From contig OY759724.1 in the NCBI GenBank assembly GCA_963662715.1, forward strand, positions 210,001 through 242,000: DNA of 32,000 bases, written 5' to 3'. The DNA is from Candidatus Omnitrophota bacterium. GTDB lineage: Bacteria > Omnitrophota > Gorgyraeia > Zapsychrales > JANLHA01. Below are positions 5,376-28,802 of the stretch, piece by piece. The position numbers and the translations under genes are program-made. The notes beneath the pieces were generated by a model. The model was not told the DNA's origin and searched no databases. It saw only the letters and a program-made list of their open reading frames with translations. Every line of letters starts with the position of its first letter. The stretch's first letter is position 1.

Positions 5376-5452
5376 AATTTTTCTGCTTTTTAAATACAGA
5401 TCTTTATAAATCCTCTACAGGATTTCTTGGCTAAATATCAAAATCAGACTCT

Positions 5453-6334: not shown

Positions 6335-6376
6335 GGAACAGCTGCTTATTCGATCAACAAAACTTCACCTCAGTTA

Positions 6377-8587: not shown

Positions 8588-8788
8588 TTAAGAAAAAGAT
8601 CCCAACGATTTCCTGATGGTGCGAATTCTGAATTCAGACATTTTAAGCGAATCTTTTAAATAACTGTCTTCAAAATTGTTGTTATGTTCCAAAGAATTCA
8701 ACAAATTCTGCAGACAGATAATTTCTCTTTGTATACTGCGAACGGTGTAGTCAAGATGCAGGCATGAAATGTTTTGACTTGAAACCAT
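8588..8788 (-). CDS. hypothetical 66-aa protein, first cistron of the porin-pst operon
   Basis: ATG at 8788 is preceded by GGAGGTGA with a 3-nt spacer (minus strand AAAGGAGGTGAATCATG; 5 nt from the GGAGG core). Stop lies 4 nt before the porin ORF. Predicted helical, with no family recognised. Confidence 0.45.
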   Translation of the reverse strand: MVSSQNISCLHLDYTVRSIQREIICLQNLLNSLEHNNNFEDSYLKDSLKMSEFRIRTIRKSLGSFS

Positions 8789-8820: not shown

Positions 8821-8872
8821 CTTATATGCCGCTTGTGAGGAACAAATGAAGGGAATGTGAAAATCATGTAAA
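8821..8872 (-). promoter_or_regulatory. Pho-box array plus -10 element (PhoB-dependent promoter of small ORF-porin-pstSCAB-phoU)
   Basis: Minus strand reads TTTACA(8872-8867)-N5-TTCACA(8861-8856)-N5-TTCATT(8850-8845)-N5-CTCACA(8839-8834), an exact 11-bp phasing. Then 7 nt, then TATAAG (8826-8821). The array replaces a -35 element, as at PhoB/PhoP-activated promoters. Confidence 0.6.
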
Positions 8873-9031: not shown

Positions 9032-10801
9032 TCAAGTCTTGGGAAGTGAAAAACTAAAAGTCGACCCGGCCCCCAAAGAACTCTCGGCAGAGACTTGGCC
9101 TCCCTGAGCCTGAACAATATGCTTGACAATAGAGAGCCCCAAACCTGTTCCTCCAAGCTTGCGGGAACGGGCCTTGTCTACCCGGTAGAAGCGCTCAAAG
9201 ACCCGAGGCAGCTCATTAGGACTTATTCCTATACCGGAATCTTTAATAAAAAACACGCAACACTCTTCATTTTCTTTAGCGGAAATTTCCACCCAGCCGT
9301 CCTCCCTGTTGTATTTTATGGCATTCTCTATCAAATTAAAAAATACTTGGGCAAAATACGTCCTGTCTGTCTTCATCTTTGGGAAAGAAGGGAGGATATT
9401 ATTGGTGATTCGAATATTCCGCTGTTCCGCAAGCGGGCCCAGGCTCTCAATTGTCTTTTCAACGATGGCGTAAACATCACAGATTTCCTGATGAAATGTC
9501 AATTTCCCCGACTCTATCCTTGCCAAATCCAATAAATCCGAAATGAGTTGCGCCAGCCTTCCGGCATTGGAATAAATGATTTTTATAAAATCCAAAGCGT
9601 TCTCCCGGTCATCGATGGCTCCGTCTATCAATGTTTCGGCATAACCTTTGATGCTAGCGATCGGGGTGCGCAGCTCATGTGAAACATTGGCGACAAATTC
9701 CTGCCGGATTTTTTCCAGCTTTCTCAAATCCGTAATATCATGAAAAACAAGCACCGCCCCTTCAATTTGCTTATCCCGTACAACCGGGGTAGCGTGAACT
9801 AAAAGCCTCTTCTCTTCTTCGAGGAAAACGGAAATTTCCTGTGTTACAAAACCACTGTGCAGGTTCAGGATCTGGTCGGTGATATGCTGAATCTCAATAT
9901 TCCGAATGACCTCCAGAGGCTTTTTCCCCCGCGGATCCCCCTCCAGGGAAAAAACATCCCTTAAAGGATCGTTAATTAATAAAATACATCCTTTAACATC
10001 AATAACGATCACGCCTTCGAACATACTCAAAAGCACGGCTTCCAGCCGCGACTTGTGCGCCACAACTTCCTCCATACGGGAGGAAATCTGCTCTGACATA
10101 TAGTTGATAAGCCGGGCTAAATCTCCAATCTCATCCGACGAATCGATAAGGACCCGCCTTGATAAATCACCGAAAGCAATGGAACGGGCGACATCAGAGA
10201 CTTCCTTCAAGGGTCTGGAGATAAAGACAGAGGCGGCATATCCTATCAGGAATGCAAAAATAAGGGCCAAAAACAGTCCCAGCAGTAAAAATTTTCTCAA
10301 AGTGTGGGAAATAAGCTGCATTTCAGAAAGAGGCAAAGCTAAACGAAGCACCCCCTTCTCTCCCTTGAAAGAGAACGGATATCCGATATAAAGCATTTGT
10401 TTCTGCAGGGTCGTACTGAAGCGCAGACTCTCTCCAATCCCTCCTCTGAGGGCAGCCTGAACCTCAGGCCGGAAAAGATGATTTTCAATATGCGCAAGAT
10501 CGGCGGCCGCGACATCGGAATCCCCCCAGAGGGTTCCGTCAGGAGCAATGATCGTAACTCTCAGTCCTAAGTCCTGGCCGATGGTGTCCGCCAACTGATC
10601 ATAACCTTCCCTGGAAACAGCCGGCAGACGGCTTTCTAAATATGTGAGACTCAAAGCCGCCTTGCTGATCAAATCGGCCTTAAGACGCTGGTAGGCATAC
10701 TGGGTCAATTTCGTATTAAGAAAAAAATACAAACCGACCAGAACAATGATGACAATCAGCGTGAAAATTATGGTGATTTTATGATGTCGATGGGCTTTCA
10801 T
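9032..10801 (-). CDS. phoR: PhoR-like phosphate-regulon sensor histidine kinase
   Basis: TM helix, about 135 aa of extracytoplasmic region, second TM, HAMP, PAS, H-box SHELRTP, and ATPase boxes NAIKYN, DSGIGI, GGTGLGLSIV. Overlaps the phoB stop by 4 nt (ATGA). Confidence 0.85.
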   Translation of the reverse strand: MKAHRHHKITIIFTLIVIIVLVGLYFFLNTKLTQYAYQRLKADLISKAALSLTYLESRLPAVSREGYDQLADTIGQDLGLRVTIIAPDGTLWGDSDVAAADLAHIENHLFRPEVQAALRGGIGESLRFSTTLQKQMLYIGYPFSFKGEKGVLRLALPLSEMQLISHTLRKFLLLGLFLALIFAFLIGYAASVFISRPLKEVSDVARSIAFGDLSRRVLIDSSDEIGDLARLINYMSEQISSRMEEVVAHKSRLEAVLLSMFEGVIVIDVKGCILLINDPLRDVFSLEGDPRGKKPLEVIRNIEIQHITDQILNLHSGFVTQEISVFLEEEKRLLVHATPVVRDKQIEGAVLVFHDITDLRKLEKIRQEFVANVSHELRTPIASIKGYAETLIDGAIDDRENALDFIKIIYSNAGRLAQLISDLLDLARIESGKLTFHQEICDVYAIVEKTIESLGPLAEQRNIRITNNILPSFPKMKTDRTYFAQVFFNLIENAIKYNREDGWVEISAKENEECCVFFIKDSGIGISPNELPRVFERFYRVDKARSRKLGGTGLGLSIVKHIVQAQGGQVSAESSLGAGSTFSFSLPKT

Positions 10802-11490
10802 GTATCATCTCTCAAACAATACCCGACACCGCGGATAGTTTCAATGAGATGTCCTGCAGATCCGAGTTTTTGACGGAGGCATTTGATATGAGTATCTACA
10901 GTACGGGTTGTGACTTCTGTATTCATCTCCCACACTTCACTTAACAGTTTTTCCCGCGACTGCACCCGCCCTCTCGTCCGCATCAGGTAAACGAGCAGAT
11001 TAAATTCCATAGACGTAAGGACGACGATATTTCCTTTAACAAGAACCCTGTGCCTCGGGATATCGATCACCATGTCGTCCAGTTCCAGGACGGCTTTCTT
11101 TTCCGAATGATCAACGGGATTTCTTTTCAAAACATTTTTGATCCTCAATATCAATTCCCGCACGCTAAAAGGCTTCACGACGTAATCATCCGCCCCCAAC
11201 TCCAACCCCACAACCCGGTCCACTTCTTCTCCCCTCGCCGTCAAAATAATAATAGGGATGGTTGACAGAAGAGCATCGGCCTTGATCGTCCGGCAGGTGT
11301 CAAATCCGTCCATTTTCGGAAGCATGATGTCGAGGATGATCAGATCGATTTCCTCATTATTCAAAGTCTCCAAGGCTTCCTCGCCGGTGATGACGACTGA
11401 GCACTTATACCCGGCCTTCTGCAGATTGTATTTTAAAAGCTTGGAAATATGAAGATCATCTTCAACGACTAAAACGTGTTCGATAGGCAT
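10798..11490 (-). CDS. phoB: PhoB-like OmpR-family response regulator
   Basis: Receiver domain (VVEDD, LIILDIMLPKMDGF, VKPF) plus winged helix (LTSMEFNLLVYLM, VDTHIKCLRQKL, IETIRGVGY). The ORF track opens at 11574, but ATG 11490 has AAAGGAG 8 nt upstream and gives the canonical N-terminus MPIEHVLVVEDD. Confidence 0.9.
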   Translation of the reverse strand: MPIEHVLVVEDDLHISKLLKYNLQKAGYKCSVVITGEEALETLNNEEIDLIILDIMLPKMDGFDTCRTIKADALLSTIPIIILTARGEEVDRVVGLELGADDYVVKPFSVRELILRIKNVLKRNPVDHSEKKAVLELDDMVIDIPRHRVLVKGNIVVLTSMEFNLLVYLMRTRGRVQSREKLLSEVWEMNTEVTTRTVDTHIKCLRQKLGSAGHLIETIRGVGYCLRDDT

Positions 11491-11680
11491 ATATCGCGCT
11501 CCTTTGGAATCTGAAATTGCTATAATCTTAACACAGATTTCAAAAGGGATGCAATAGCTGGGAATGAAGTTCACAAAAATATCACAAACGGAGCTCTTGC
11601 GAATATTTTGTTATCCACAGGGCAAAAACTTCTCACAAATCTATTAAAAAAATATTTCACGAAAATATTTATATATTTAT

Positions 11681-12264: not shown

Positions 12265-12822
12265 TTATCTAAAACAGTTCTTAACAGCCGGGCGGCTGAA
12301 ATAATACAACAGGGAAACGGCCAATACGACATCTAATAACACATAAAAAACATATCCTGTCCAGGGGTTAATAACGCTCCCCCCGGGCATATGTTGCTCG
12401 GTAAGCTCCGCCAAACGGATGAAGGCGAATATAGAATGTTTCCAGGGGAATCCGAACAATAAAGCCAGGCCCAGGATCAGCATTCCACGCCGGGCCCATG
12501 TTTTCATCTGCAACAGAGCGACACAGGCATAAATAACAATTCCTCTTGAGCATAGCGAAAGAACATACCGGGAGAGAACGGCAGGAAAAGAAAGGTGCTG
12601 AAACATAAAATAATAATAAGAGAAGTCTCTCGCCCCAAGAATCTGATCGACGCATAAAGAGAGCAGCAAAACGCCAAAAAACACAACTCCTCTAGGCCTT
12701 GGTGTTTTTAAATTTCTCTTTAATATACGGGCGAGTCCATAACTGCCGGAAACGATAAGAAAAAATGTCAGGCCCCTATCAAGAAGAATATATGCGGCTG
12801 AAGCGTCTTGATTCATAAGCAA
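12265..12822 (-). CDS. hypothetical polytopic membrane protein
   Basis: 185-aa ORF with about 5 hydrophobic helices, 47 nt downstream of the ABC-2-like permease. The ORF opens with TTG at 12822, and ATG at 12816 is equally possible. No family recognised. Confidence 0.55.
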   Translation of the reverse strand: MLMNQDASAAYILLDRGLTFFLIVSGSYGLARILKRNLKTPRPRGVVFFGVLLLSLCVDQILGARDFSYYYFMFQHLSFPAVLSRYVLSLCSRGIVIYACVALLQMKTWARRGMLILGLALLFGFPWKHSIFAFIRLAELTEQHMPGGSVINPWTGYVFYVLLDVVLAVSLLYYFSRPAVKNCFR

Positions 12823-16071: not shown

Positions 16072-16743
16072 CTACAACCCTTCGGAAATTTTTTTCAACA
16101 GTGTGTGTTCCAGGTCATCAAAAGATCCGGGTAAGATATCTCCGTCCTGGGGATAATACGATGCCGCCAACAACTGTCTTTTGAACGACTCATCAATCAT
16201 TCTTAAGGGGAAAAGCTTTTTCCCGTAACAATAAATATCAAAATAAACCACTTGCTGCGCCGGATTGACGATTTCTATGAGTTCAAAATCCGTATTAGGG
16301 AATTTGCTGTTAGAATAATATTCCTGTCCGCCGATAAAAAAAATCTTGTCCTTCTCAACCTCAAAGAAGTATTCGGCCCCCTCATCTTCCAGTTCAGGGA
16401 ACCCGACCATTCGTTCACTCCGGCAATGGGTCACTCTGACTTTTCCGGCCCCCAAGGCAGCCTGCAATTCCAGGATCCGGTTGATATTATCTTTAACATT
16501 ACGGAAATACACCCATAAAAATATTCCGATATAAAGCCCTACCACGGCAAAAGCTAAATAACCTAATCCCGGATCGTGCTGCGCTTGGCGTAAAGCCAGC
16601 ATCGTCCCCCCCACAAGGCCGAACAACACCAAGATAAGGGTCAGACGGAAATAACGGTCCTTCTGCTTTAACAGGTAACTCATTTCCTTGTTAAGCACTT
16701 CCCGCTCTTTAATATCCAGGTCTCTTGAAAAGCAATGTAGCAT
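16072..16743 (-). CDS. hypothetical membrane protein (2 TM plus cytoplasmic domain)
   Basis: 223-aa ORF with two hydrophobic helices (LTLILVLFGLVGGTMLAL, LAFAVVGLYIGIFLWVYF) followed by a soluble domain of about 140 aa. No family recognised and no clear RBS. Confidence 0.55.
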   Translation of the reverse strand: MLHCFSRDLDIKEREVLNKEMSYLLKQKDRYFRLTLILVLFGLVGGTMLALRQAQHDPGLGYLAFAVVGLYIGIFLWVYFRNVKDNINRILELQAALGAGKVRVTHCRSERMVGFPELEDEGAEYFFEVEKDKIFFIGGQEYYSNSKFPNTDFELIEIVNPAQQVVYFDIYCYGKKLFPLRMIDESFKRQLLAASYYPQDGDILPGSFDDLEHTLLKKISEGL

Positions 16744-17227
16744 CTCTATATTTTTGTTAACAAATCTTTTGATTATTTCTCGACGCTTATATAAAAATCC
16801 TGAATGCCGATACGATGCGTTTTTTATCTAAAACGACTGAACCGGTTCGTCTCCCGGGCCTAAACTCCCGGGCCGGCCCAAAGGCACAATTGTCCATGAA
16901 TAAGATACATTCTTTGCTCGACAGGGTTTTCCGGAGCGAAGTCGGAAAGGATATCTGTTTCTTGAGGGAAAATGATGCGTAAGATTTCATGGCATATTTG
17001 TGTCATATCTGTTATGACAGCCTTCATTTATTGTATCTCCTTTATGGACAAAAACAAGCACAATATAAAATCCGCCTTATCTGAATTCTTTCGTGGCCTC
17101 TGTTGTCCCCCGTGCCGCACAAACAGCACGCCACAGGGCTCCCGTCCCCGGGTCTTCCCCGACAAATGCCGAGAAAAACAGGATGGACGGAAGAATCCCG
17201 CTTTTTCCAGTCAAAGATTATGAATTA

Positions 17228-18595
17228 TTACTTTCCCGCAGAAGAGGCATAAAGGAAAAGGGCTTTTCTCTGTGAAGAATCTTTGTATCGTGATACGGCT
17301 TGCGGGGAAGGAAGTTGAATGCTTTTGATATTCTTGCTTTTCAGATATTCTCTGGCGGCCTTATTTAATATCAGTTTCTTGTCTTGATACCCTATGATAA
17401 GCAACTGCGGGTTTTTCTTGCAGATCTTCCGGAGCAACGTCAAATTCATTCTATGGGATAACACTTTCTCATCCGAAGAAAGGCTGTTCTTAACTTTTTT
17501 GACCTTGCCGTCCGTCCGGATATAGACACTGCCCGGATAGGACTGCTGATGAATGATTATGCCGTTATCTGCCGCTAACTGAATATCCATGGCCTTGTCA
17601 CGGACGTCCGGGAGGGGACCTTTCTCATCCTGCTGCAATAAGGCCACGGCTCCCAAAATAACGGCAAAATCCCCTAACTGTGAAGGGACGATCCGGCAAT
17701 GGTCAACGCCTTTAAAAAAGGGATCTGCCGCGGAAACGCGCTTGACCTTCGGAAGCATATATTTGCCGCAGGCCTCTATCAACCCTCCGCCGAAGACGAT
17801 CATCTCGGGATTAAAAATATGGCGTAACGAAATACACGCTTTCCCCAAAACGACACAGACCTCATCAAGAATACGAAGGACATCCGGGTCCTTCCGCTTA
17901 ATAGCCTCAGCAATAACCGAACTTTTAACGAGGCCTTTTTTTTCTTTGACTAAACTCTTAATACCAGACTTCTTCTTTTTTCTAACAACGCTCCAGATCT
18001 CCCTTTCAATGGCCCGCCGGCTGGCTAAAGCTTCCAAAGAACCGTAAATGCCGGCGTTTTCCTTTCTGCTGTTATAGTCTAGAATCATATGCCCCAGTTC
18101 CCCTGCCGCCCCCTGTGCGCCGGAAACGAGTCTGCCGTCTATGATAATGGCTCCGCCGACACCGGTTCCGGGGAAAAGCCCCAGCACATGCCGCACATCC
18201 TTAGCAACCCCTAACCATTTTTCTCCCAGCAGGCCTAGGTTAACATCATTCTCCAAAATAACCTTAACACCAAAGTCCTTCTTCAGCTTTCTGCCCAGAG
18301 GGAAGCGGCTTAAATTCGTATTCGGAGTAACAAGAACTTCCGTATGATCCGGTTTGACGATTCCGGGTATCCCGACCCCTATACCGACAAAGCGGGCCTC
18401 CGGGACAGGCGACGCCTTCATCAATTCCCGGATCAAGGTCTTTATGGCCTGATATATTTGGGGGGACGTTGCATTTTGCGGAGTCTGGATCTTTTTCCGG
18501 CAGAGCAATTGCCCTTCCTGGGTGACCAGTCCCGCGGATATTTTCGTGCCGCCGATATCCACGCCTATATATACTGACTCTTTCATCACTGACAT
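17228..18595 (-). CDS. ROK-family sugar kinase fused to a C-terminal Mth938-like (DUF498) domain
   Basis: N-terminal GVDIGGTK, ENDVNLGLLGE and GTGVGGAIIIDGRLVSGAQGAAGELGHM are ROK/ASKHA motifs. Residues from about 335 to 455 (YPGSVYIRTDGKV...SHRMNLTLL...PQLLIIGYQDKKL...IQLPSPQAVSRYKD...ALFLYASS) follow the Mth938/DUF498 pattern. Start could be ATG 18586 instead of 18595. Confidence 0.85.
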   Translation of the reverse strand: MSVMKESVYIGVDIGGTKISAGLVTQEGQLLCRKKIQTPQNATSPQIYQAIKTLIRELMKASPVPEARFVGIGVGIPGIVKPDHTEVLVTPNTNLSRFPLGRKLKKDFGVKVILENDVNLGLLGEKWLGVAKDVRHVLGLFPGTGVGGAIIIDGRLVSGAQGAAGELGHMILDYNSRKENAGIYGSLEALASRRAIEREIWSVVRKKKKSGIKSLVKEKKGLVKSSVIAEAIKRKDPDVLRILDEVCVVLGKACISLRHIFNPEMIVFGGGLIEACGKYMLPKVKRVSAADPFFKGVDHCRIVPSQLGDFAVILGAVALLQQDEKGPLPDVRDKAMDIQLAADNGIIIHQQSYPGSVYIRTDGKVKKVKNSLSSDEKVLSHRMNLTLLRKICKKNPQLLIIGYQDKKLILNKAAREYLKSKNIKSIQLPSPQAVSRYKDSSQRKALFLYASSAGK

Positions 18596-18599
18596 CCTA

Positions 18600-19943
18600 T
18601 TAGACTGTTTCTTCTTCGGTTATCTTTAATTGTAATTCTTTTTGGAAAACTAATCTAAACAAATCGGATTTTTTTTCCACCCGTGCCTTTTCCCACTCGG
18701 AGAAATCATCTGCCCTTATCTCAAGAACAACCTGTCTTTTATCCACCCTTGCCCGCAAAGCTTTGACCGAATTCACGTGACGGCTGTCAAACCCGTCGGC
18801 CAATCTGAGAAGGGAAGCCAGTTTCTTCAGTTCCTCCTTCTTCCCGTCAGACAAATCCGAATAATATTTATGGGTGTTTTTCGGCAGAGCCCTTCTATGG
18901 TACCGTGCAACCAGCGCCACAATGACTTTCTCATCATAACTCAAAGGTAAATTGTAGGATTTCAGAATCATATCCCTGGACGTTTTATGATGACGGATCC
19001 GCCCTTTGATCCAGCCGATATCATGCAACAGGGAAGCCGACTGCAACAACAGGCGATGTCTGGGGGACAGCTGATGGAGGTCCGCCAGTCCGTCAAACAG
19101 CTGCAGCGTCAGTTGGGTCACCTGATGAGAATGCTCCTTTTCATATTCACACGATCTGGCCAGTTTTAAAACCTCCTGGATAACATCTTTTTCACTGGCC
19201 TGCCTCCAGACCTGGCGATTGATCTCATCTAGACTTTGACCTGTCTCAATGGAACGGATAATATCTTTAGGGAACTTTTTCTGCGTCATGGCCCGGATAA
19301 CGCTCTTAAGAGGATAGGAAATACGTCTGTTGCTGACACTGATCTTACGCCCGTCAATATCCATGACAACATATGAAGCGCGCGGGTCTCCGTCAAAAGG
19401 ACGTCCGACACTTCCTGGATTAACGAACCAGACATTCTTGATCTTTTTCAAAAAAAATTTGTGGGTGTGCCCGCATAAAATCAGGTCGGCATGACTTGTC
19501 TGCGCGAGCTGTTCAAATCTCTTCACTGGAGTATTGTCCTGCAAAGGTTCATCCATAGACTCCGGACTCCCGTGGGTCAATAAAATGTTCAACCCTTCTC
19601 TGGTGCATCGGACAGAACACGGCAAGTTCTGCAGATAATTCCGGGCTGGTTTTGACAGCTGTCGATACGTCCACTTGAATGAAAAATATTTTGACGGGGT
19701 CTTGCTGTTTTTCCATTTTCGCTGTTTTTGGGGGAATCTCAGGACATTCAGGTCGTAATTTCCGGCAATGCTGACCTGAGCTTGTTTCCGAATGACCTGA
19801 ATAACCTTCTGGGGCGCAGGTCCGTAGCCGACATAGTCGCCCAAAAACCATATCTCTTGAACGGACTGCGAACGGATATCACGCAGGACAGCCATTAAGG
19901 CTGGTAAATTGGCATGGGCATCAGCTAAAACGGCGACCTTCAT
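18600..19943 (-). CDS. metallophosphoesterase (YfcE/Metallophos_2-like) fused to a Ppx/GppA-type C-terminal HD module
   Basis: N-terminal half has DAHAN, GDYVGYG, GNYD, LTHGSP, CGHTH and NPGSVGRP (calcineurin-like phosphoesterase metal ligands). The C-terminal half is collinear with the C-terminus of the ppx product in this window (LHDIGW..HHKTS..VARYHRRALPKNTH..LASLLRLADGFD versus LHEIGM..HHKHS..VARYHRGAVPQKTH..LSSIIRLANALD). Confidence 0.8.
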   Translation of the reverse strand: MKVAVLADAHANLPALMAVLRDIRSQSVQEIWFLGDYVGYGPAPQKVIQVIRKQAQVSIAGNYDLNVLRFPQKQRKWKNSKTPSKYFSFKWTYRQLSKPARNYLQNLPCSVRCTREGLNILLTHGSPESMDEPLQDNTPVKRFEQLAQTSHADLILCGHTHKFFLKKIKNVWFVNPGSVGRPFDGDPRASYVVMDIDGRKISVSNRRISYPLKSVIRAMTQKKFPKDIIRSIETGQSLDEINRQVWRQASEKDVIQEVLKLARSCEYEKEHSHQVTQLTLQLFDGLADLHQLSPRHRLLLQSASLLHDIGWIKGRIRHHKTSRDMILKSYNLPLSYDEKVIVALVARYHRRALPKNTHKYYSDLSDGKKEELKKLASLLRLADGFDSRHVNSVKALRARVDKRQVVLEIRADDFSEWEKARVEKKSDLFRLVFQKELQLKITEEETV

Positions 19944-20848
19944 AATCCCCCGAACCAGGCATAGACATATTCACACATATTCTCAAAAGTGCGTTGCTCT
20001 TTCGCCTGTTGCCATCTTTCAAAAAATTGAATATATACGGTTTCTTTTTCCTTTTGAAGATACCCTTTGAGGAGTTTCCACAAATTTCGGGCAGCCTTTC
20101 CTTTCCCCGGGCTCCTTTGCTCCAAAATCATTATCTCTCGCAACCAAAGATCATAGTCATGAAAAACCCCCAATTGTCTGTGAAAAGTCAGCACGCTGTC
20201 GCTAAAGACATCCAACCCCTCATCGTACAGCAAAGATAATCCTTCCAGCGTATATCTCAGGTGCTTGGCGGCAATACGCATGTTGTGCAGGTCGTTGACC
20301 TTTTCCGGATATTGGGCGATGCCGTCAAATTCAACTAAACCAACGGCTCTTTTTTTGATTTTCTTATAAGCAAGCTTATAAATATCCGTTTCGCCCAAGT
20401 CCCTCACTCCGTCCCTGCTGTAATTCTCTATGTCCCGCCAAACCCGTTTGAGCTTTTTCTTGGCCAGCGCGTCGCCCATCCGGCGCTGCAACCGCTTTTT
20501 TTTATCATTTAATACAAACAAGGCCTCTTCCAGTATTTCCAGTTGTTCTTTCCTGTCGGTTCTTGTCCGGTACCCGTCCAAAAAAATAACAAACACATCC
20601 AAATCCCGGCCGGCAGACGTCGCTCCGGCGAGTTTACGCAGCTGATCATTCCAGGCCTCCCGCCGTTTGCGGGGGAAGACGTCCTTCCATATCCACAGGG
20701 CATTTCGCAGCCGTCTGATATTAACGCGCAGTTGATGCAGCGATTCGACATCCCCTGCCTCAACCCCCGGGATGGCCTTCTCAATCCTTTTGACATGCTT
20801 CAAAAGGCATTGCTCCGTTAATTGTCGTGTTAATGTTTTATCCTTCAT
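19940..20848 (-). CDS. CHAD domain-containing protein
   Basis: 302-aa helical ORF with the two CHAD signature helices LHQLRVNIRRLRNAL and LHNMRIAAKHLRYTLE. Overlaps ppk1 by 11 nt and the downstream gene by 4 nt. Confidence 0.75.
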   Translation of the reverse strand: MKDKTLTRQLTEQCLLKHVKRIEKAIPGVEAGDVESLHQLRVNIRRLRNALWIWKDVFPRKRREAWNDQLRKLAGATSAGRDLDVFVIFLDGYRTRTDRKEQLEILEEALFVLNDKKKRLQRRMGDALAKKKLKRVWRDIENYSRDGVRDLGETDIYKLAYKKIKKRAVGLVEFDGIAQYPEKVNDLHNMRIAAKHLRYTLEGLSLLYDEGLDVFSDSVLTFHRQLGVFHDYDLWLREIMILEQRSPGKGKAARNLWKLLKGYLQKEKETVYIQFFERWQQAKEQRTFENMCEYVYAWFGGL

Positions 20849-22871
20849 AATGTTTGATCATTTCATGCTGAATATCTTTATCATCTTCTTTGCCTTTGAG
20901 TTTTTCGTATTTCCCGTCAGGACAAAGGCGCCAGGACTTCTTGTGGTCTTTCCAATAGAGCTCCAGCAGGGACTTTAAATGCTCTTTGATATCTTCCTTG
21001 TATATTTCAAACAACAGCTCAACGCGCCCGTCAAAGTTTCTTCTCATCCAATCAGCCGATGATAAGAAAATCCGGGCATTATCATTGTTGTTGAACAAAA
21101 ACATCCTCGTGTGCTCCAGAAAACGGCCGACGGTACTTTTAACCTCAATATTATCACTGAGCCCCTGAACTTCCGGGATTAAACAACAGATGCCTCTCAC
21201 GATGAGCTTCACCTTAACGCCTGCCTTTGACGCGGAATACAGTTTTTCAATAATACGGGGATCTTCCAGCGAATTCATTTTGGCCAGGATCAGGCCGTTT
21301 TTATTTTTCTTCTGAAATTTCATCTCCCGTTCAATGAGAGAAAACAAATATTCGCGCAGGTCATTGGGGGCAGAAATGATCCGCTCCCATCCTGTCGGCA
21401 TGGAATAGCCGGTAATAACATTAAAAATTTCCGACACATCCCTGGCAAAGTCATCATTGGCGGTAAAATAGCCGATATCCGTATAAATTCTCGCAGTTTT
21501 CTCGTTATAATTTCCCGTAGAAAGATGCACATATCTTTGAATCTGTGCGTTCTCTTCCCGGACGATCAACGCCATCTTGGAATGAACCTTATATCCGGGG
21601 ATACCGTAAATGACATGGCACCCGGCTTCTTCCAGCTCCCGGCTCCATTTGATATTGCTCTCTTCGTCAAATCTGGCCTTAATTTCCACAAGAATCGTCA
21701 CCTGTTTTCGGTTCGCAGCCGCCTCTTTAAGGGCATCAATAATCGCCGAATCATTATTCGTGCGATACAGCGTCATTTTGATCGCCAGGACATGCGGATC
21801 TTTCGCGGCTGTGCGGATAAGGTCCACTGTGGGGTAAAAAGACTGAAACGGGAGATGCGTTATAAAATCGCCCTCTTTCATTCTTTCAAAAATATTCTCA
21901 TACTCAATCTTTCCGGGTAAATATCCCGGGAAACAAAACTCCGGCCGGTCAACCTGCCTGATCAGATCAAACAGCAGCGTCAAGTCCAGATCGTTATCAA
22001 GGAACAACACATCTTCCTTGGGAAACTCCAGGCCTTCCGAAAGCATCGCCAACACACTGGCATTGGCGACCTGTTCGGCCTGAACGCTGACAACATGAGC
22101 CACCTTTCTCTTTTTGACCTCTCCTTCAATGGTCTTAAGAAGATTGGGAGAGAACTCTTCGTCCACATCCAGCTCACTGTCCCGCATGACCCGGAACAGG
22201 AAAAAATTCTTAATCTTATATCCTTTAAAAAAAGACCCGAGATGCTGCCGGATAATGTTATCCACCAGAAAAAACACGTAATCCTTCTTGCCCGACGGCA
22301 ACCGGATAACCCGCGGGACATTCTGCGGAACCGGAACGATCGCCAGATGTTCGCTCCCTTTCTGTTTGAGGCCGACCGCAAAAGCCATGGTCTTTGAAGG
22401 CAGAATCGGGAAAGGGTGTCCGGGGTCTACGGCTAAAGGGGTGATAATAGGGTAAAGGATCGTTTGGAAATATTCCTCAATAAACCTTTTTTGTTCTTTG
22501 TTCAAATCCTTATACTGCTTGACATATATCCGGTTCTTTTCCAGTTCCGGGGAAAACACCTTTTGATATATTTCATAAGATTTTTTAATAAGGTTCGTGG
22601 AGACCCTCTTTGTCTCATGCAGGACATCAACGGAATAATGCCCGAAAGCATCAACCTGGTTTACCTGAGCGCTTATCAAATTCTGCAGACCGGCGATACG
22701 CACCATAAAAAATTCGTCAAAATTATTGGCAAAAATCGCCAGAAATTTTATGCGCTCCAGCAGAGGATGCGACGGGTCCAGACATTCCTCCAGAACCCGG
22801 GCGTTGAACTGCAGCCAGCTTAAATCCCGGGGAATAAACCGGCTGTCCTCACGTATTTCTAAATGGGTCAT
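20838..22871 (-). CDS. ppk1: polyphosphate kinase 1
   Basis: 677-aa ORF with N-terminal FIPRDLSWLQFNARVLEE...FLAIFANNFDEFFMVRIA, and PLD-like C-terminal repeats YKVHSKMALIV and GRFLEHTRMFLF, all characteristic of PPK1. Confidence 0.95.
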   Translation of the reverse strand: MTHLEIREDSRFIPRDLSWLQFNARVLEECLDPSHPLLERIKFLAIFANNFDEFFMVRIAGLQNLISAQVNQVDAFGHYSVDVLHETKRVSTNLIKKSYEIYQKVFSPELEKNRIYVKQYKDLNKEQKRFIEEYFQTILYPIITPLAVDPGHPFPILPSKTMAFAVGLKQKGSEHLAIVPVPQNVPRVIRLPSGKKDYVFFLVDNIIRQHLGSFFKGYKIKNFFLFRVMRDSELDVDEEFSPNLLKTIEGEVKKRKVAHVVSVQAEQVANASVLAMLSEGLEFPKEDVLFLDNDLDLTLLFDLIRQVDRPEFCFPGYLPGKIEYENIFERMKEGDFITHLPFQSFYPTVDLIRTAAKDPHVLAIKMTLYRTNNDSAIIDALKEAAANRKQVTILVEIKARFDEESNIKWSRELEEAGCHVIYGIPGYKVHSKMALIVREENAQIQRYVHLSTGNYNEKTARIYTDIGYFTANDDFARDVSEIFNVITGYSMPTGWERIISAPNDLREYLFSLIEREMKFQKKNKNGLILAKMNSLEDPRIIEKLYSASKAGVKVKLIVRGICCLIPEVQGLSDNIEVKSTVGRFLEHTRMFLFNNNDNARIFLSSADWMRRNFDGRVELLFEIYKEDIKEHLKSLLELYWKDHKKSWRLCPDGKYEKLKGKEDDKDIQHEMIKHYEG

Positions 22872-22873
22872 GG

Positions 22874-24415
22874 TTAAACAGGCTTTCTGATAACAAGTTT
22901 AATATCATTCCCGGAAAGCTCCTCAAAGAGCCGCTTCCGTTCGTTAAAATAGACGTTTTCCAGCGTCATCCCTTCATTCGTATAGGCGATCAGGGTAATG
23001 TCCCCTTTAGCGTTCCTTTTAAAATCGACTTTCTTTATCTTTTGCTTTTCCGAGCCATCCAGCGCATTGGCCAGCCTTATGATAGAGCTCAGCTTTTGAA
23101 CGACGAGCTGTTCTTCATTAGGAAGGCTGCCGTAAAGAACGTGCGTTTTCTGCGGGACAGCCCCCCGATGATAGCGTGCCACACAGGCAATGCATTTGAT
23201 CTCATGCGCGGTCAGCCGAAAAAGGCTCAAAGCGTTGATGATATACTCACTGTGTTTATGATGCCCCCGCGGATTGATGAGCATTCCTATTTCATGCAAA
23301 TACGCGGCCAACCTCAAGTACAATAAATGCCGGTCCTCTAACCCCAGCGCCGCCCCGACGTGGTTAAAAATCTCTTCAGACAAATAGGAGATATATTTCG
23401 CGTGTTTCAAATCCGAATTATACTTGCGGCACAAAAATTTTGCCACCGAAACAAGCTGATTCTCCCGGTGGTATTTCTGGTCCAATTCAAGCCCCAGGAT
23501 CGTATGCGCCAACAGGGCCTCCGAAAGGGATGTTTCGAGGATATAAATAGACCGCTTGGAGGTCAACTTGAAAAGCTTGTGCAGAATCACAGCATACCCG
23601 TCCAGAGAACTGGCCGTATCCGTGGAAATATTGTACTTCTGGGCCAAGTCATCCAGGTTCCCGCTCGTGACAAGGGAAAGGAATTCTTTGGACTCCCTGA
23701 ACTGCAGCTGAAAAAAATTGCTGCCCAGCTTCTTATGCGAAAGGATATTATGAAGAGCCACGGAATAGCTTTCATCGACCAGGATCACATCATCTATGTG
23801 GATATGGAAAAAAAACTTTTTGATGTTGAGAAGCTCATGTTCGACATACTCTTCCAGGGCCTCGTAAGTTTGCTTCTGGCTTCCGTCAATTCTGTTTTTA
23901 AATTTTTTCAATCTCAACGTTCCTATCGGAAGGCCTTGAGTGACCAGAGCAAAACCTTTCTCCAGCATCGACAAATCCAGGCTCCCCGCCCCCAGTTCGG
24001 CAATGATAAGATTTTTTTCATTGATCGGATAGGACTTCTTAAGCCGGTAAGACAGGTACGCATCAATATAATAAACGACATCACCGACATTTAAAACTTC
24101 AATGTCCAGCCCGGTCCTCCTTCGGATGGTATCCAGGAAAATGTCTTTATTTTCCGCCTCCCTTACCGCAGTCGTTGCGATGACCTTGATATCCGTCACC
24201 CGGTAATCAGAAATAACTTTCTTATACTGATTTAAGACATGAATACTCTGATTGACGATATCCTGAGTAATACGCCCCTGATAAAAAGTGCTTATTCCAA
24301 AACCGATGATATTCTTCAACGACTCTAGAATCTTGAATTCCTCTCCGCTCTTTTCCCCAATAATAAGTTTGGTGGAATTCGATCCGATGTCAATAACAGC
24401 TGCTCTCATAATCAT
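22874..24415 (-). CDS. ppx: Ppx/GppA-family exopolyphosphatase
   Basis: ASKHA motifs AVIDIGSNSTKLII and ELGAGSLDLS, plus a C-terminal HD module (LHEIGM, HHKHS, ARYHR). Stop is 2 nt before the ppk1 ATG. Start may be the third codon (ATG 24409), which has better GAGGA spacing. Confidence 0.9.
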   Translation of the reverse strand: MIMRAAVIDIGSNSTKLIIGEKSGEEFKILESLKNIIGFGISTFYQGRITQDIVNQSIHVLNQYKKVISDYRVTDIKVIATTAVREAENKDIFLDTIRRRTGLDIEVLNVGDVVYYIDAYLSYRLKKSYPINEKNLIIAELGAGSLDLSMLEKGFALVTQGLPIGTLRLKKFKNRIDGSQKQTYEALEEYVEHELLNIKKFFFHIHIDDVILVDESYSVALHNILSHKKLGSNFFQLQFRESKEFLSLVTSGNLDDLAQKYNISTDTASSLDGYAVILHKLFKLTSKRSIYILETSLSEALLAHTILGLELDQKYHRENQLVSVAKFLCRKYNSDLKHAKYISYLSEEIFNHVGAALGLEDRHLLYLRLAAYLHEIGMLINPRGHHKHSEYIINALSLFRLTAHEIKCIACVARYHRGAVPQKTHVLYGSLPNEEQLVVQKLSSIIRLANALDGSEKQKIKKVDFKRNAKGDITLIAYTNEGMTLENVYFNERKRLFEELSGNDIKLVIRKPV

Positions 24416-24780
24416 TTGTCCTCAATTGTTCAATTTGATTGTTCCGGCCCCGGAGCACAGCATCATGGATGTTTTAAAACGCCGAAATATTTATTATGCG
24501 GTTCCGGGAGGGAAAAATCAAACAAATTCTCACAGCCCGGACAACGCGACCAATAACACCCCGTCCAAACGGTCATCTGCACGGCCGGACGGGTGACGCC
24601 ACAGCGAAAACATCGGGACAACAATACGGCCGGGTATCGAAGACGGGTATAATGGGATTTTTATAATAGTAACACAAAATGATCAATATAATAAACTCAT
24701 TATTACTCAACCGCCCGCTTTTATGAAGATCAGCAAAATTAAAGCATCGGGCAGGGGGATATCACGCGATTATCTCTGAA

Positions 24781-24832
24781 TAATATAGGTATGACATGAA
24801 GGGAAAGTGAAGCCCAAGAAAAAAGTGTGTGA
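24781..24832 (-). promoter_or_regulatory. second Pho-box array plus -10 element, upstream of the ppx-ppk1 operon
   Basis: Minus strand reads TTCACA(24832-24827)-N5-TTTTCT(24821-24816)-N5-TTCACT(24810-24805)-N5-TTCATG(24799-24794), then 7 nt, then TATATT (24786-24781). The 11-bp phasing and 7-nt distance to the -10 match the pst promoter. The core TTCACTTTCCCTTCATG matches TTCACATTCCCTTCATT there at 15 of 17 positions. Confidence 0.5.
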
Positions 24833-24963
24833 ATTCTTGTTAAAACACCCTGTCAACGAAGATAAGGCCGGGAGAGATCGCAATTACAAGGCTCGGAAGG
24901 ATTAAACGCGGAATTTCAAGGCCCCGGGATTGAACAGGATAAATTCGGGGTGGCAGAAGGTTC

Positions 24964-26336: not shown

Positions 26337-28802
26337 TTATTGCAGTCCCTGCACCAGACAACGGTAGGAAAAAAGGGCCAGGATATAAATTCCTGCGGCC
26401 AATATCAATATGGCATTAAACCCCAGGAATTGAGCGATAAGAATCGCCAGCATCGAAGCAAAGACGCTGAACCCGCTATTAATCCCCCAGGCCCATGGGA
26501 TCGCTTCCTCCACCTTTCGCCCTATCAAATGCAGTCCCAGGGGGAAATACAGCCCCAGGAGAAAGCCCAGCGGCAGCAGGAAGACACCGACAATCCCCAC
26601 CCGCACCAAAAAGGCCAGACCAAGCGCCTGCTCAGTTAACGAGGGGCCGATAGTCATGAGAAAGACGAGATAGCCGACAAGCAGGGCTGTGGCCGTATAA
26701 ATCAGTTTCAAGTGGCTCTTAAAAATCTTCTCCAATACAGGCAACGCATAACTCCCGATACCCGCCGATATAAGCAACATGGCCAGGATAATGCTGATAG
26801 AATAAATCGGGCTGCCCAACAACAAAACGAACTTCTGCATCATGGGGATCTCAATAAACATAAATCCCCACCCCAGGCAGGCAAAGTAGGAAATAAACGG
26901 CAGGATGCTCGCGGAAGGCAGGGCCCGGATGTTGGTTCTTTTAAAAAGCCACAACGGCCATAAAATAAAGAGCAAAATAAAGACAAGGGCCTGAAGCAAC
27001 ACAATGATCTGCGTCATAAACATGATGGATCCCAAATGGTGATGGTGCGAAACTTTAAAAGGGTTGAACGAATTCAGTTTGTAATATTTATAAAAGAACG
27101 GGGCATCATCGGTCACAACAGAAATATCATAGGGATAGTTTTTTCGCCATTTGGCTAAACGGTCATTTTGAAAGTCCCGGGCATACTGGCTGAAATAATT
27201 GACGGGGTGTTTGTTGATTTTTGTCCAAATATCCCCGGGATAAACGGGGACCGTCCGGTGCTTCCTGAAATAATCAAAAACTTTTGCGGTTTCCGCCGCT
27301 GTGAAAGGGGTCTTCTTAATTAAGATAATCGACCACCAGGTCACATGATCCCCGATAATAATATGCTCCCAGGGCCTGGCGGCACCGGTTTCCTTTAAAG
27401 CGTCAAGGGCGATAGCATAGAGACGCAAGGTCTCCCGGGGCTGCTCCGGGAACAGCCAGCGGTTAAAATTAACGACGCCGTCGTCTTTAATAACGCGCAA
27501 ATAATCCAGGAGGGCATTCTTCGTATAAAGGTAACTTTCGGCATAGGCATACGCTCCGGAGGTTAACCCCGAAAACGTATCAACCCCGTTCAAAACAATC
27601 AAATCAAAAGAATCCGGGGGCAAATTCTTCACGAGATGACGGCCGTCCACGTTGAAAACTTTTGTCTGGTCCAGAGTATAAACGCCTCCCGAGTATTCAT
27701 ACATCCTTCCTCCGGGAGACAGGGCCTGCACAATGGCAGGATTAATTTCCGCACCAAGAATTGTCCCGGCTCCGTGACTCTTCGCCATGAAAATATCCCG
27801 CCCTCCGCCGGTGCCGATGATAACGACATCCGGACGATCAAAAAGCACATAGGGCACTTCCATGCCCTGGCTGAACAATCTGAGCTTTGACCGGTGTTCG
27901 GCCAGGCCTTCCGGAGAGAGGCGGTAAATAGGCGCGCCGGCCAAATAATTCGTTGTTATGTAGGAAAATTCCGGCCGGGGGATGACATTGATTTCAAAGG
28001 TGCCTATCGATGTTGAGGACAACAGTTCCTGAGCCTGCGGATCAACCATCCTGAAGATATCGGTCCGGCCCAAAGGATGCCATTGCGACAAAAGACGTTC
28101 GTACTGATGCGGCTTATAGGCTCCCGGGATCCATTCCCACCCTTTATTCTTGTCGATCGTATAATCGTCTGTTTCCGGGACCGTCATAAAAATAAAAGGG
28201 ATGGCCACCAGAAAAATGACAGCCAGTATGATTCTTTTCCTCGGGATCAGGGTCCAGAAAGCCAAAAATAGACACACCCAGCAGAGCAACAGCAGCGAAT
28301 GTGTCACCTGAAAGGAATTGATCAGGAAAAAAAACATGAAGGCCCCGGTCCCGGCCCCCAGCAGATCAAAAAAATACAATCTTGACGACCGCGTGGCGTG
28401 AAACGTAAACACATAAACGATGAGGAATCCTATCAGGGTAAAAGGAACGGCAAACAACGTGTAGGCCCATAACAAAACGGACATCGAAGAGAAACTCACC
28501 AATATCTGAGCAACGTCGTCCACGCAAATCGGAAGATATCCGATCCCCACAGTACAAATATAACCGTAGCAGGCCATCTTGATAAGAGCATAGCCGATAA
28601 CCTTATCCGGCTTAAGTCTGGAAAGATAATCTTTGAGGATAAAAACGATATTAGCCCCTATCCCGTAACCCAGGATAGCAAACGGGATGACAATATAGAC
28701 CACATGGTTCCAGGTCTTGAGGCTGAGAATCCTGGTTAGAAAAAGTTCCAGATTGATCGCGTAAAACGAGACAAAACAGATAATGAAATAGAGTTTAAAC
28801 AC
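26337..28802 (-). CDS. polytopic membrane protein with central spermidine-synthase-like (class I methyltransferase-fold) domain
   Basis: 821-aa ORF (GTG start) with about 7 TM helices, then VVIIGTGGGRDIFMAKSHGAGTILGAEINPAIV and FDLIVLNGVD...LRVIKDDGVVNF (SpeE-like nucleotide-binding and acidic-loop motifs), then a soluble region and about 6 more TM helices. Confidence 0.8.
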   Translation of the reverse strand: MFKLYFIICFVSFYAINLELFLTRILSLKTWNHVVYIVIPFAILGYGIGANIVFILKDYLSRLKPDKVIGYALIKMACYGYICTVGIGYLPICVDDVAQILVSFSSMSVLLWAYTLFAVPFTLIGFLIVYVFTFHATRSSRLYFFDLLGAGTGAFMFFFLINSFQVTHSLLLLCWVCLFLAFWTLIPRKRIILAVIFLVAIPFIFMTVPETDDYTIDKNKGWEWIPGAYKPHQYERLLSQWHPLGRTDIFRMVDPQAQELLSSTSIGTFEINVIPRPEFSYITTNYLAGAPIYRLSPEGLAEHRSKLRLFSQGMEVPYVLFDRPDVVIIGTGGGRDIFMAKSHGAGTILGAEINPAIVQALSPGGRMYEYSGGVYTLDQTKVFNVDGRHLVKNLPPDSFDLIVLNGVDTFSGLTSGAYAYAESYLYTKNALLDYLRVIKDDGVVNFNRWLFPEQPRETLRLYAIALDALKETGAARPWEHIIIGDHVTWWSIILIKKTPFTAAETAKVFDYFRKHRTVPVYPGDIWTKINKHPVNYFSQYARDFQNDRLAKWRKNYPYDISVVTDDAPFFYKYYKLNSFNPFKVSHHHHLGSIMFMTQIIVLLQALVFILLFILWPLWLFKRTNIRALPSASILPFISYFACLGWGFMFIEIPMMQKFVLLLGSPIYSISIILAMLLISAGIGSYALPVLEKIFKSHLKLIYTATALLVGYLVFLMTIGPSLTEQALGLAFLVRVGIVGVFLLPLGFLLGLYFPLGLHLIGRKVEEAIPWAWGINSGFSVFASMLAILIAQFLGFNAILILAAGIYILALFSYRCLVQGLQ

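Follow-up and report, generated by a model that had tools for sequence, protein, structure and literature searches.

The 32,000-nt stretch of contig OY759724.1 (Candidatus Omnitrophota bacterium) analysed here, hereafter called the window, carries on its minus strand a candidate operon for the turnover of polyphosphate (polyP). Five consecutive open reading frames (ORFs) cover 24415..17228: ppx (gene 1), ppk1 (gene 2), a gene for a CHAD protein (gene 3), a gene for a metallophosphoesterase (MPP) joined to an HD module (MPP::HD, gene 4) and a gene for a ROK-family protein joined to an Mth938 domain (ROK::Mth938, gene 5; Table 1). An earlier note on this DNA had proposed the same five genes. In the ORF listing its junctions proved exact to the nucleotide, namely, from gene 1 to gene 5, a 2-nt gap (22873-22872), an 11-nt overlap (20848-20838), a 4-nt overlap (19943-19940) and a 4-nt gap (18599-18596), and Pfam and NCBIfam likewise bore out all the domains that it had named (Ppx, Ppk1, CHAD, MPP::HD and ROK::Mth938). 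The nearest named relatives of the window proteins belong to metagenome-assembled genomes (MAGs) of Omnitrophota. The window also encodes a porin; the organism is therefore one with an outer membrane (diderm).

The five-gene cluster and its conservation

Gene 1 matches the Pfam families PF02541 (Ppx-GppA; E = 3.6e-24, 86.1 bits) and PF21447 (Ppx-GppA_III; E = 4.9e-23, 82.3 bits), for which the cut-offs are about 27 bits, and falls below the cut-off of TIGR03706, an exopolyphosphatase-only model that separates PPX from GppA (127.3 versus 307 bits). By its sequence, gene 1 is a Ppx/GppA-family exopolyphosphatase, the choice between PPX and GppA specificity not being fixed by the sequence. All four PPK1 Pfam domains (PF13089, PF02503, PF17941 and PF13090) are found in gene 2, which scores 815.2 bits on TIGR03705 (cut-off 465.85), and gene 3 matches PF05235 with 118.9 bits (E = 4.4e-34; gathering score 25.6). 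CHAD domains bind polyP by experiment and are known from clusters of polyP genes (PMC6537752). In total net positive charge the CHAD protein (+16), MPP::HD (+26) and ROK::Mth938 (+31) exceed all other window proteins, which would suit proteins sitting on a polyanion.

The five genes lie on one strand, their junctions range from -11 to +4 nt, and their order is kept in four other contigs. Internal terminators, which would split the cluster, were looked for as well, and terminator-like hairpins within it turned out to be at background level (10 observed, 10.9 expected from shuffled sequence). These features suggest that the five genes form one polyP turnover operon, which would probably be read as a single transcript. 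The gap downstream of gene 5 measures 484 nt, and no canonical terminator was seen in it; it contains, oriented towards the 3' end of the operon, an 83-aa ORF without a Pfam match (16972-17223, plus strand). The upstream neighbour of the operon is a gene for a GGDEF protein, which was considered as a further member and rejected, since the promoter array described below lies on its downstream side and, in contig L080, two other genes stand between it and ppx.

Recurrence of the five-gene order was checked, and the exact order ppx-ppk1-CHAD-MPP::HD-ROK (the ROK protein being of about 450 aa) was found in four further contigs of Omnitrophota-like genomes (L080, L081/L082, L164 and L168; approximately 33-80% protein identity), with many variants besides. 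Because the identical order recurs in these contigs, the arrangement is more than chance. In L080, a 592-kb ENA contig with proteins 45-80% identical to those of the window, the flanks are syntenic too, including an ABC transporter and phoBR. The flanks are quite different from the window's in L081/L082 (Omnitrophica MAG GCA_020632495.1; 33-60% identity) and unlike the window's in L164; L168 belongs to GCA_034376285.1. Shortened variants lack one or both of the middle genes and keep the ROK fusion as the last gene: ppx-ppk1-CHAD-ROK::Mth938 is found in L167 and L170, and ppx-ppk1-ROK::Mth938 in L166 and L169. A ROK gene, fused to Mth938 where this was scored, adjoins the cluster convergently in L002, L006, L054, L083, L084 and L165.

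Table 1. Positions in the window of the cluster genes, their domains, the candidate promoter elements and the regulatory genes.
Feature	Position	Strand	Description
Gene 1, ppx	22874..24415	-	513 aa; ASKHA domains I-II plus domain III; GAGGA Shine-Dalgarno before start
Gene 2, ppk1	20838..22871	-	677 aa; polyphosphate kinase 1
Gene 3, CHAD	19940..20848	-	302 aa; stand-alone
Gene 4, whole	18600..19943	-	447 aa; Metallophos_2 residues 1-197, HD/Ppx-GppA_III residues 258-409
Gene 4, N-terminal domain	19239..19943	-	about residues 1-235; SapH/ApaH-like metallophosphoesterase, helical cap insert at about residues 62-106
Gene 4, C-terminal module	18600..19196	-	about residues 250-447; homologous to exopolyphosphatase domains III-IV; H..HD..D tetrad intact
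Gene 5, whole	17228..18595	-	455 aa; ROK residues 9-322, DUF498/Mth938 residues 341-438
Gene 5, ROK domain	17621..18595	-	about residues 1-325; catalytic, sugar and ATP motifs intact; zinc cysteines lost
Gene 5, Mth938/DUF498-like domain	17228..17593	-	about residues 335-455; strongly basic
Pho-box-like array upstream of ppx	24795..24843	-	direct repeats with about 11-nt spacing; would stand in for the -35 element
Candidate -10, TATATT	24782..24787	-	13 nt from the start of the last half-site (7 nt between); promoter scan TTCACT-18-TATATT
Second, weaker sigma-70-like candidate, TTGATT-17-CATAAT	24493..24521	-	about 75 nt upstream of ppx start; 9/12 consensus matches only
Pho-box-like array upstream of porin-pstSCAB-phoU	8835..8872	-	TTTACA-N5-TTCACA-N5-TTCATT-N5-CTCACA, then TATAAG 7 nt on
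PhoB-like response regulator	11574..10798	-	Response_reg + Trans_reg_C; true start probably further downstream
PhoR-like histidine kinase	10801..9032	-	HAMP-PAS-HisKA-HATPase_c

The two fusion proteins

The N-terminal domain of gene 4 matches Metallophos_2 in Pfam (E = 1.5e-28) and TIGR00040 in NCBIfam (68.3 bits, cut-off 56.25), and contains the motif set DxH, GD, GNH(D/E), H and GHxH, which places it among the calcineurin-like metallophosphoesterases of the YfcE/SapH type. The residues concerned, D8, H10, G35-D36, G61-N62 (within GNYD), H124 and H159/H161, are invariant in an alignment of 26 sequences. NCBIfam names the protein only at the subfamily level, as a "YfcE family phosphodiesterase". 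An AlphaFold2 model of the protein (mean pLDDT 93) was compared with solved structures using Foldseek. The N-terminal domain retrieved 3rqz, a metallophosphoesterase from Sphaerobacter, and 3qfm/3qfn (SapH), with target-normalised TM-scores of 0.79-0.86 (0.83-0.86 for the SapH matches alone), while the C-terminal domain retrieved the C-terminal parts of exopolyphosphatases (3rf0, 1u6z, 2flo and 8jgo), with target-normalised TM-scores of 0.72-0.77 for 3rf0, a C-terminal fragment of Y. pestis PPX. Profile searches aligned the same module with residues 338-519 of D. radiodurans PPX (8jgo, E = 1e-31), and BLASTP with residues 328-461 of the window's own Ppx (32% identity, E = 1e-14). The label "HD" that the earlier note had given to this module is correct as far as the domain goes (PF01966, 28.7 bits versus a cut-off of 22, and the tetrad of conserved residues), but the module is not a generic HD domain; it is specifically that formed by domains III-IV of PPX. 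Because its N-terminal domain resembles SapH and its C-terminal domain resembles PPX domains III-IV, gene 4 is best described, judging from its sequence, as a PPX in which a predicted two-metal phosphoanhydride/phosphodiester hydrolase takes the place of the actin-like catalytic half.

The tetrad H271, H307-D308 and D383 is invariant in 26 sequences and its residues are kept in 62-64 of the approximately 64 MPP::HD genes scored. The PPX genes that share these loci are less strict: 31 of 45 keep D308 and 12 of 44 keep D383. The strictness of the tetrad hints at a functional metal site in gene 4. An intact HD site was also considered as a mark separating gene 4 from PPX; it serves as such only partly, since PPX proteins often keep the HD dyad, and I make no claim of a second active site.

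The genomic context of gene 4 was surveyed with an alignment-based scan, using one genome per species, which returned at least 579 loci. The best 79 of these at least 579 loci come from Planctomycetota, Chloroflexota, Omnitrophota, Synergistota, Deltaproteobacteria, Bathyarchaeia, Methanomassiliicoccales, Methanophagales/ANME-1 and others. Neighbours within 10 kb were counted in the 59 loci that have at least 4 kb on both sides of the gene-4 homologue. At least one of CHAD, ppk1 and ppx is present in 55 of the 59 loci, and all three are present in 31; a CHAD gene lies immediately 5' of the gene-4 homologue, on the same strand, in 46, ppk1 is near it in 45 and a full-length ppx in 35. The order of the genes varies, being ppk1-CHAD-MPP::HD-ppx in archaea and Synergistota, CHAD-MPP::HD-ppx-ppk1 in Planctomycetota and ppk1-MPP::HD, with no CHAD, in many Anaerolineae. 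The linkage of gene 4 to the polyP genes persists through these rearrangements and therefore argues for a functional connection, beyond shared ancestry alone.

An exhaustive profile search (E <= 1e-30) yielded 3,758 representatives of the gene-4 family (50%-identity clusters). About 33 of the top 150 appear to have the architecture CHAD::MPP::HD, judged by a length of 710-810 aa and a match that starts near residue 320, and about 7 others of the 150 appear, by length and match position, to be CHAD::MPP proteins without HD. These approximately 40 CHAD fusions rest on length and match position, seven of them having been checked with Pfam, which shows CHAD as an extra N-terminal part in P0252, P0256, P0261, P0281 and P0299 and confirms the shorter architecture in P0341 and P0348. 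Since CHAD binds polyP and relatives of gene 4 are fused to CHAD, gene 4 is likely to act on or at polyP, and this covalent fusion is the strongest available argument for such a role.

Other arrangements of the same parts were encountered. In L165 a stand-alone 192-aa PPX-C/HD protein (9591-10169) follows CHAD in place of gene 4. In L070, L073 and L077 a PPX-C-like segment lies directly upstream of the MPP segment, either as a reversed domain order or as split genes. The CHAD-MPP::HD pair occurs twice in tandem, within approximately 6 kb, in L028, L035, L039, L056 and L062 (Bathyarchaeia and one MAG labelled Limnocylindrales), the first copy lying in a ppk1-CHAD-MPP::HD-ppx cluster. In the relative P0358, an MPP domain of this type is joined not to PPX-C but to a SAM hydroxide adenosyltransferase (SAM_HAT_N/C).

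The ROK domain of gene 5 matches PF00480 with 205 bits (E = 2e-60). The DxGxT ATP motif, the catalytic Asp and the ExGH sugar motif are present, and D13, G15, T17, K18, N116, D117, G143-G145, E166, G168, H169, E188 and G269-G271 are invariant in 26 gene-5 homologues. A role as a ROK repressor was considered and rejected: the protein has no N-terminal DNA-binding domain and its kinase motifs are all intact. On the ROK glucokinase model TIGR00744 the protein stays below the cut-off (174.5 versus 260.35 bits). The zinc motif GHx(9-11)CxCGxxG(C/H)xE is absent; the window reads GHMILDYNSRKENAGIYGSLE, with ENAGIYGS at the place of CxCGxxGC. This loss is seen inside a single orthologous group, the subclade of the window having S/E-x-A-G-x-Y-G-T/S, while the distant fusions P0160, P0166 and P0171 keep the cysteines.

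The C-terminal domain of gene 5 scores 31.9 bits on PF04430 (cut-off 33) within the full protein and 35.3 bits when isolated, and the same family was found in all 20 of the ROK::Mth938 proteins searched. Its profile matches 2ab1, 2cyj and 1ihn with E values of 7e-8 to 3e-7; the assignment rests on these profile searches, a fold search with the full-length protein being dominated by the ROK domain. Across the family this domain has a mean net charge of +12.7 and a mean isoelectric point of 9.9. In most homologues the ROK domain is basic as well; that of gene 5 itself has a net charge of +15.

In eight look-ups anchored on ROK::Mth938 proteins from long contigs, ppk1/ppx or PPK2 adjoins the fusion gene every time, in arrangements that vary (same-strand or convergent, with or without CHAD and MPP::HD). 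That this linkage is kept through rearrangement argues for function and not for inheritance alone. The metagenome scan on gene 5 used generic ROK motifs, so that 9 of its 80 loci are true fusions and the other 71 serve as a background control, in which polyP genes are near the ROK gene in three cases (L097-L099). The link of gene 5 to polyP genes appears strong but not universal. In L163 (Elusimicrobia) a two-domain PPK2 of 494 aa (5119-6603) lies two genes from ROK::Mth938, and in L168 (Omnitrophota) a PPK2 (10844-11671) lies close to it; these neighbours, as far as their sequences tell, link ROK::Mth938 to both families of polyP kinases. From such data I only infer that gene 5 would be a polyP-consuming kinase.

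The upstream region and the Pho genes

The Pho-box-like array upstream of ppx reads TTAACA (24843)-N4-TTCACA (24833), then a degenerate TTTCTT, then TTCACT (24811)-N5-TTCATG (24800), and a promoter at this place implies a 5' leader of approximately 360 nt. The array is present in the span 17228-24832 that the earlier note had assigned to the cluster, except that the first half-site (TTAACA, 24843-24838) lies just outside it. A 16-mer, TTCAC[AT]TTCCCTTCAT, is common to the ppx and pst/porin promoters and occurs nowhere else in the window. The geometry of the two promoters, claimed to be the same, is similar but not identical, the pst promoter having an extra half-site between the shared 16-mer and the -10. 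The array had also been taken for the only strong promoter signal upstream of the operon; it is indeed there, but it is not the sole candidate, TTGATT-17-CATAAT being nearer to ppx. A pattern of three half-sites has 3 matches in the window versus 0.12 expected, all of them within the ppx and pst promoters, a statistic that is partly circular since these two promoters supplied the pattern. The PhoB and PhoP boxes of E. coli and B. subtilis have the same repeat unit and an 11-nt period.

Upstream of ppx in L080, the closest relative, TTTACA-N5-TTTACG-N5-TTCACC-N5-TTCACG precedes TATAAT and aligns with the array of the window, which is the sole conserved block in the alignment of the two leaders. 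When the leaders of four orthologous operons were aligned, conservation was again confined to the repeat array, and the upstream repeats are less regular in L081 and L164. A conserved leader RNA was considered and dropped: an Rfam search of the operon plus its long leader gave no match, and the leaders are conserved only at the repeats. The reading of the promoter as a Pho box gains support from the repeats common to the ppx and porin-pstSCAB promoters and kept in L080. Pfam identifies pstSCAB-phoU, the porin and the phoB/phoR-like genes, all of them in the window, and the phoB/phoR-like pair is syntenic in L080; its products are presumed, from their domains, to be the regulators acting on the arrays. 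Control of the operon by such a Pho system is moderately likely, as judged from the repeats and the genes present.

On the opposite strand upstream of phoB, another pair of half-sites reads TTCACA-N5-ATCACA in the window (about 11568-11590) and TTCACC-N5-ATCACA in L080 (about 18830-18860). This conserved pair suggests autoregulation of phoBR. Because the half-sites overlap the called GTG start of a 258-aa ORF, the true start of phoB is probably further downstream; the PhoB of L080 has 229 aa. The leader that separates the pst Pho-box promoter from the porin gene contains a 66-codon ORF (8588-8788, minus strand) preceded by a strong Shine-Dalgarno sequence, AAGGAGGTG. Elsewhere in the window, minus-strand ORFs of 821 aa (26337-28802), 534 aa (12870-14474) and 223 aa (16072-16743) have no match in Pfam (E <= 0.01) or NCBIfam, and one of 185 aa (12265-12822, minus strand) has no Pfam match at E <= 0.01. 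The 534-aa ORF overlaps the end of the gene for an ABC ATPase, a pair that is syntenic in L080, and may encode an unrecognised permease partner of this ATPase.

Proposed roles, rival explanations and meaning

Read as a module, the cluster is very likely a polyP operon. Ppk1 would make polyP from ATP or regenerate ATP from polyP, and Ppx would take off terminal phosphates. The CHAD protein would bind the polymer or the granule surface and pair with the gene-4 protein, which its PPX C-module and CHAD would hold on polyP while its metallophosphoesterase site, possibly along with the HD site, cuts the chain. Gene 4 would then be a second, mechanistically different polyphosphatase, possibly one that cleaves internally. 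On the available comparisons, the chances that polyP is the substrate of gene 4 are about even, and a preference for endo- over exo-cleavage is a guess from the precedent of yeast Ppn1 and Ppn2. Gene 5 would be an active hexose kinase, most likely a glucokinase, tethered to polyP by its basic Mth938 tail; glucose would be phosphorylated at the cost of the polyP store, either directly from polyP or via ATP that Ppk1 makes nearby. That gene 5 draws on polyP directly is conceivable and somewhat doubtful. Transcription would be driven, at least in part, by a PhoB-like regulator encoded 13 kb away, acting via the 11-nt-periodic array in place of a -35 element. A tentative hypothesis joins these elements, and it seems rather unlikely to hold in all its parts: MPP::PPX-C together with CHAD would constitute an overlooked second class of prokaryotic polyphosphatase, unrelated to PPX in mechanism and possibly endo-acting, and ROK::Mth938 would constitute an independent second lineage of polyP-driven glucokinase with a polyP-binding Mth938 domain.

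Several observations weigh against this scheme and are set out here with the explanations that rival it. Gene 4 might encode a hydrolase of nucleotide polyphosphates (diadenosine tetraphosphate (Ap4A), adenosine tetra- or pentaphosphate, or (p)ppGpp) that acts as a proof-reading or regulatory enzyme, its substrates being side products of PPK or alarmones that regulate PPX. SapH, the closest solved relative with a known activity (with the TM-scores given above), is an asymmetric Ap4A hydrolase/phosphodiesterase; the closest solved relatives of the N-terminal domain act on nucleotides (Ap4A, ATP), ApaH-type hydrolases match its profile, the C-module occurs also in GppA-type pppGpp hydrolases (6pc0, 6pbz), and the HD dyad is kept by many PPX of the same loci. 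However, the polyP-binding CHAD protein is encoded directly upstream of gene 4 in most of the loci counted and is apparently fused to many of its relatives, the best match of the C-module is an authentic exopolyphosphatase (8jgo, versus E = 5e-11 for GppA), and the protein is highly basic, so that a nucleotide hydrolase is regarded as unlikely. Gene 5, in turn, might encode an ordinary ATP-dependent glucokinase that came to lie in the operon by chance or for co-expression, with an Mth938 domain serving oligomerisation or an unrelated regulation. Its best matches in the PDB, by sequence and by fold, are the ATP-glucokinases 2qm1 and 3vgk, its ATP motifs are intact, it scores only 58.5 of the required 250 bits on the polyphosphate-glucokinase model NF045942, with only residues 10-181 aligned, and four distant fusions (L086, L088, L089 and L090; 33-43% identity) have no polyP genes within flanks of 3-10 kb. 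By contrast, the look-ups found polyP kinase or ppx genes beside ROK::Mth938 in every case and in varied arrangements, the generic ROK loci are linked to such genes in only 3 of 71, and the tail is uniformly very basic, joined to a kinase domain that is basic itself. An ordinary glucokinase therefore appears to be one of the less probable readings, though a serious one.

The repeats upstream of ppx might likewise be something other than a Pho box, the operon being transcribed from a constitutive, nearer sigma-70-like promoter or controlled by another OmpR-family regulator. The second promoter-like site does lie nearer to the ppx start than the array, a promoter at the array would leave an unusually long leader in which no RNA element is recognised, the motif statistics are post hoc, the repeats lose regularity in two of the related contigs and no Pho-box consensus is known for this phylum. 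These points have to be set against the exact 16-mer that only the ppx and pst promoters have in common in 32 kb, the match of the repeat unit and of its 11-nt spacing to PhoB/PhoP boxes, the array being the only conserved block of the window-L080 leader alignment and the similar pair kept upstream of phoB, in view of which a promoter of another kind is rather improbable. As for the operon itself, a Shine-Dalgarno site is recognisable only for ppx and gene 4, leaving three of the five genes without an obvious one; the missing sites are consistent with translational coupling, with which they are compatible and of which they are no proof. A last explanation is that the cluster is an ordinary polyP operon, i.e. 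the classical ppx-ppk pair with unrelated neighbours, the literature having long recorded ppk-ppx operons and neighbouring CHAD genes (PMC6537752, citing Iyer and Aravind 2002 and Akiyama et al. 1993). This is very improbable: the linkage of genes 4 and 5 to polyP genes extends over many phyla of both bacteria and archaea and takes many different arrangements, relatives of gene 4 are fused to CHAD as well, and the range of taxa speaks against the linkage being a sampling artefact of a single clade.

The preferred reading, a polyP operon with two accessory enzymes, can be placed among known systems. As in the ppk-ppx operon of E. coli and Klebsiella, PPK1 and a Ppx/GppA-family protein are encoded by adjacent, apparently co-transcribed genes, whereas in the window ppx comes first, three more tightly packed genes follow the pair, and the host is an Omnitrophota-like bacterium that has not been cultured. 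Several bacteria are known to have ppk promoters under Pho regulation. The C-terminal 190 or so residues of gene 4 are homologous to domains III-IV of PPX (E. coli 1u6z, D. radiodurans 8jgo), which in E. coli are implicated in long-chain polyP binding and processivity, but gene 4 lacks the actin-like domains I-II, has a two-metal metallophosphoesterase domain instead and keeps the H..HD..D tetrad almost strictly. Its N-terminal domain shares fold, metal motifs and helical cap with SapH (S. pneumoniae Spr1479), the ApaH/PrpE-type Ap4A hydrolases and YfcE, enzymes that cleave phosphoanhydride or phosphodiester bonds with Mn2+; unlike gene 4, these are single-domain, nucleotide-acting proteins, for which no link to CHAD, ppk1 or ppx and no fusion with PPX-C is known. 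The yeast endopolyphosphatases Ppn1 and Ppn2 belong to the metallophosphoesterase superfamily and show that this fold is able to cleave polyP, internal bonds included; both are vacuolar enzymes of a eukaryote and have neither PPX-C nor CHAD as a partner. In YgiF, a CYTH/TTM::CHAD triphosphatase, CHAD is joined to a phosphohydrolase, as it is in the CHAD-fused relatives of gene 4 (PMC6537752). The partner of CHAD in the window is, by contrast, a calcineurin-like metallophosphoesterase with a PPX C-module and not a triphosphate tunnel metalloenzyme, and the two are encoded by separate, overlapping genes.

Gene 5 resembles the polyP glucokinases PPGK/PPGMK of Actinobacteria and cyanobacteria (1woq) in being a predicted ROK-fold hexokinase without the zinc-cysteine motif and apparently tied to polyP, but it is closer to ATP-glucokinases, its kinase part is some 70 residues longer, and it has the additional Mth938 domain. 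Its C-terminal 120 residues belong to the same family as MTH938 (1ihn), PH1505 (2cyj), human AAMDC (2ab1) and NDUFAF3; the known members are small proteins that stand alone and for which no biochemical ligand is established, whereas the domain of gene 5 is fused to a kinase, highly basic and encoded in polyP operons. That the last two cistrons match no characterised enzyme, as had been stated, agrees with what was found: NCBIfam offers a YfcE subfamily and sub-threshold ROK models only, source records call proteins of these two kinds only "YfcE family phosphodiesterase", "putative phosphoesterase", "ROK family protein" or "glucokinase", and the searchable literature, whose coverage is incomplete, yielded no description of the MPP::HD-CHAD link, of ROK::Mth938 or of polyP operons in Omnitrophota. 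The term "undescribed system" in the earlier note is thus apt for the two accessory enzymes and their linkage, but not for the ppx-ppk1-CHAD core, a kind of cluster that is already known, as are ppk-ppx operons, CHAD in such clusters and Pho-regulated ppk genes. Apparently new are the MPP::PPX-C family with its near-obligate pairing with CHAD, ppk1 and ppx, and ROK::Mth938 as the terminal gene of ppx-ppk1 operons.

Microbial polyP catabolism has been held to be limited to kinases and exopolyphosphatases, and an archaeon has been found to possess a polyP-degrading activity that depends on Mn2+/Co2+, its enzyme being unidentified (PMC13318637, 2026). Comparative genomics can hardly provide a stronger linkage than the one between gene 4 and ppk1, ppx and CHAD, and the gene-4 family is a directly testable candidate for a new polyphosphatase. 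The family is widespread in anaerobic bacteria and archaea and, if the proposal is true, would be a candidate for archaeal Mn2+/Co2+-dependent polyP-degrading activities. ROK::Mth938 offers uncultured anaerobes a possible way of feeding stored polyP into glycolysis and, again if the proposal is true, would provide a first biochemical function for the Mth938 fold, which is shared with human AAMDC and NDUFAF3. Together, the operon, phoBR and pst offer a first picture of what a Pho regulon and its Pho box may look like in Omnitrophota-like bacteria.

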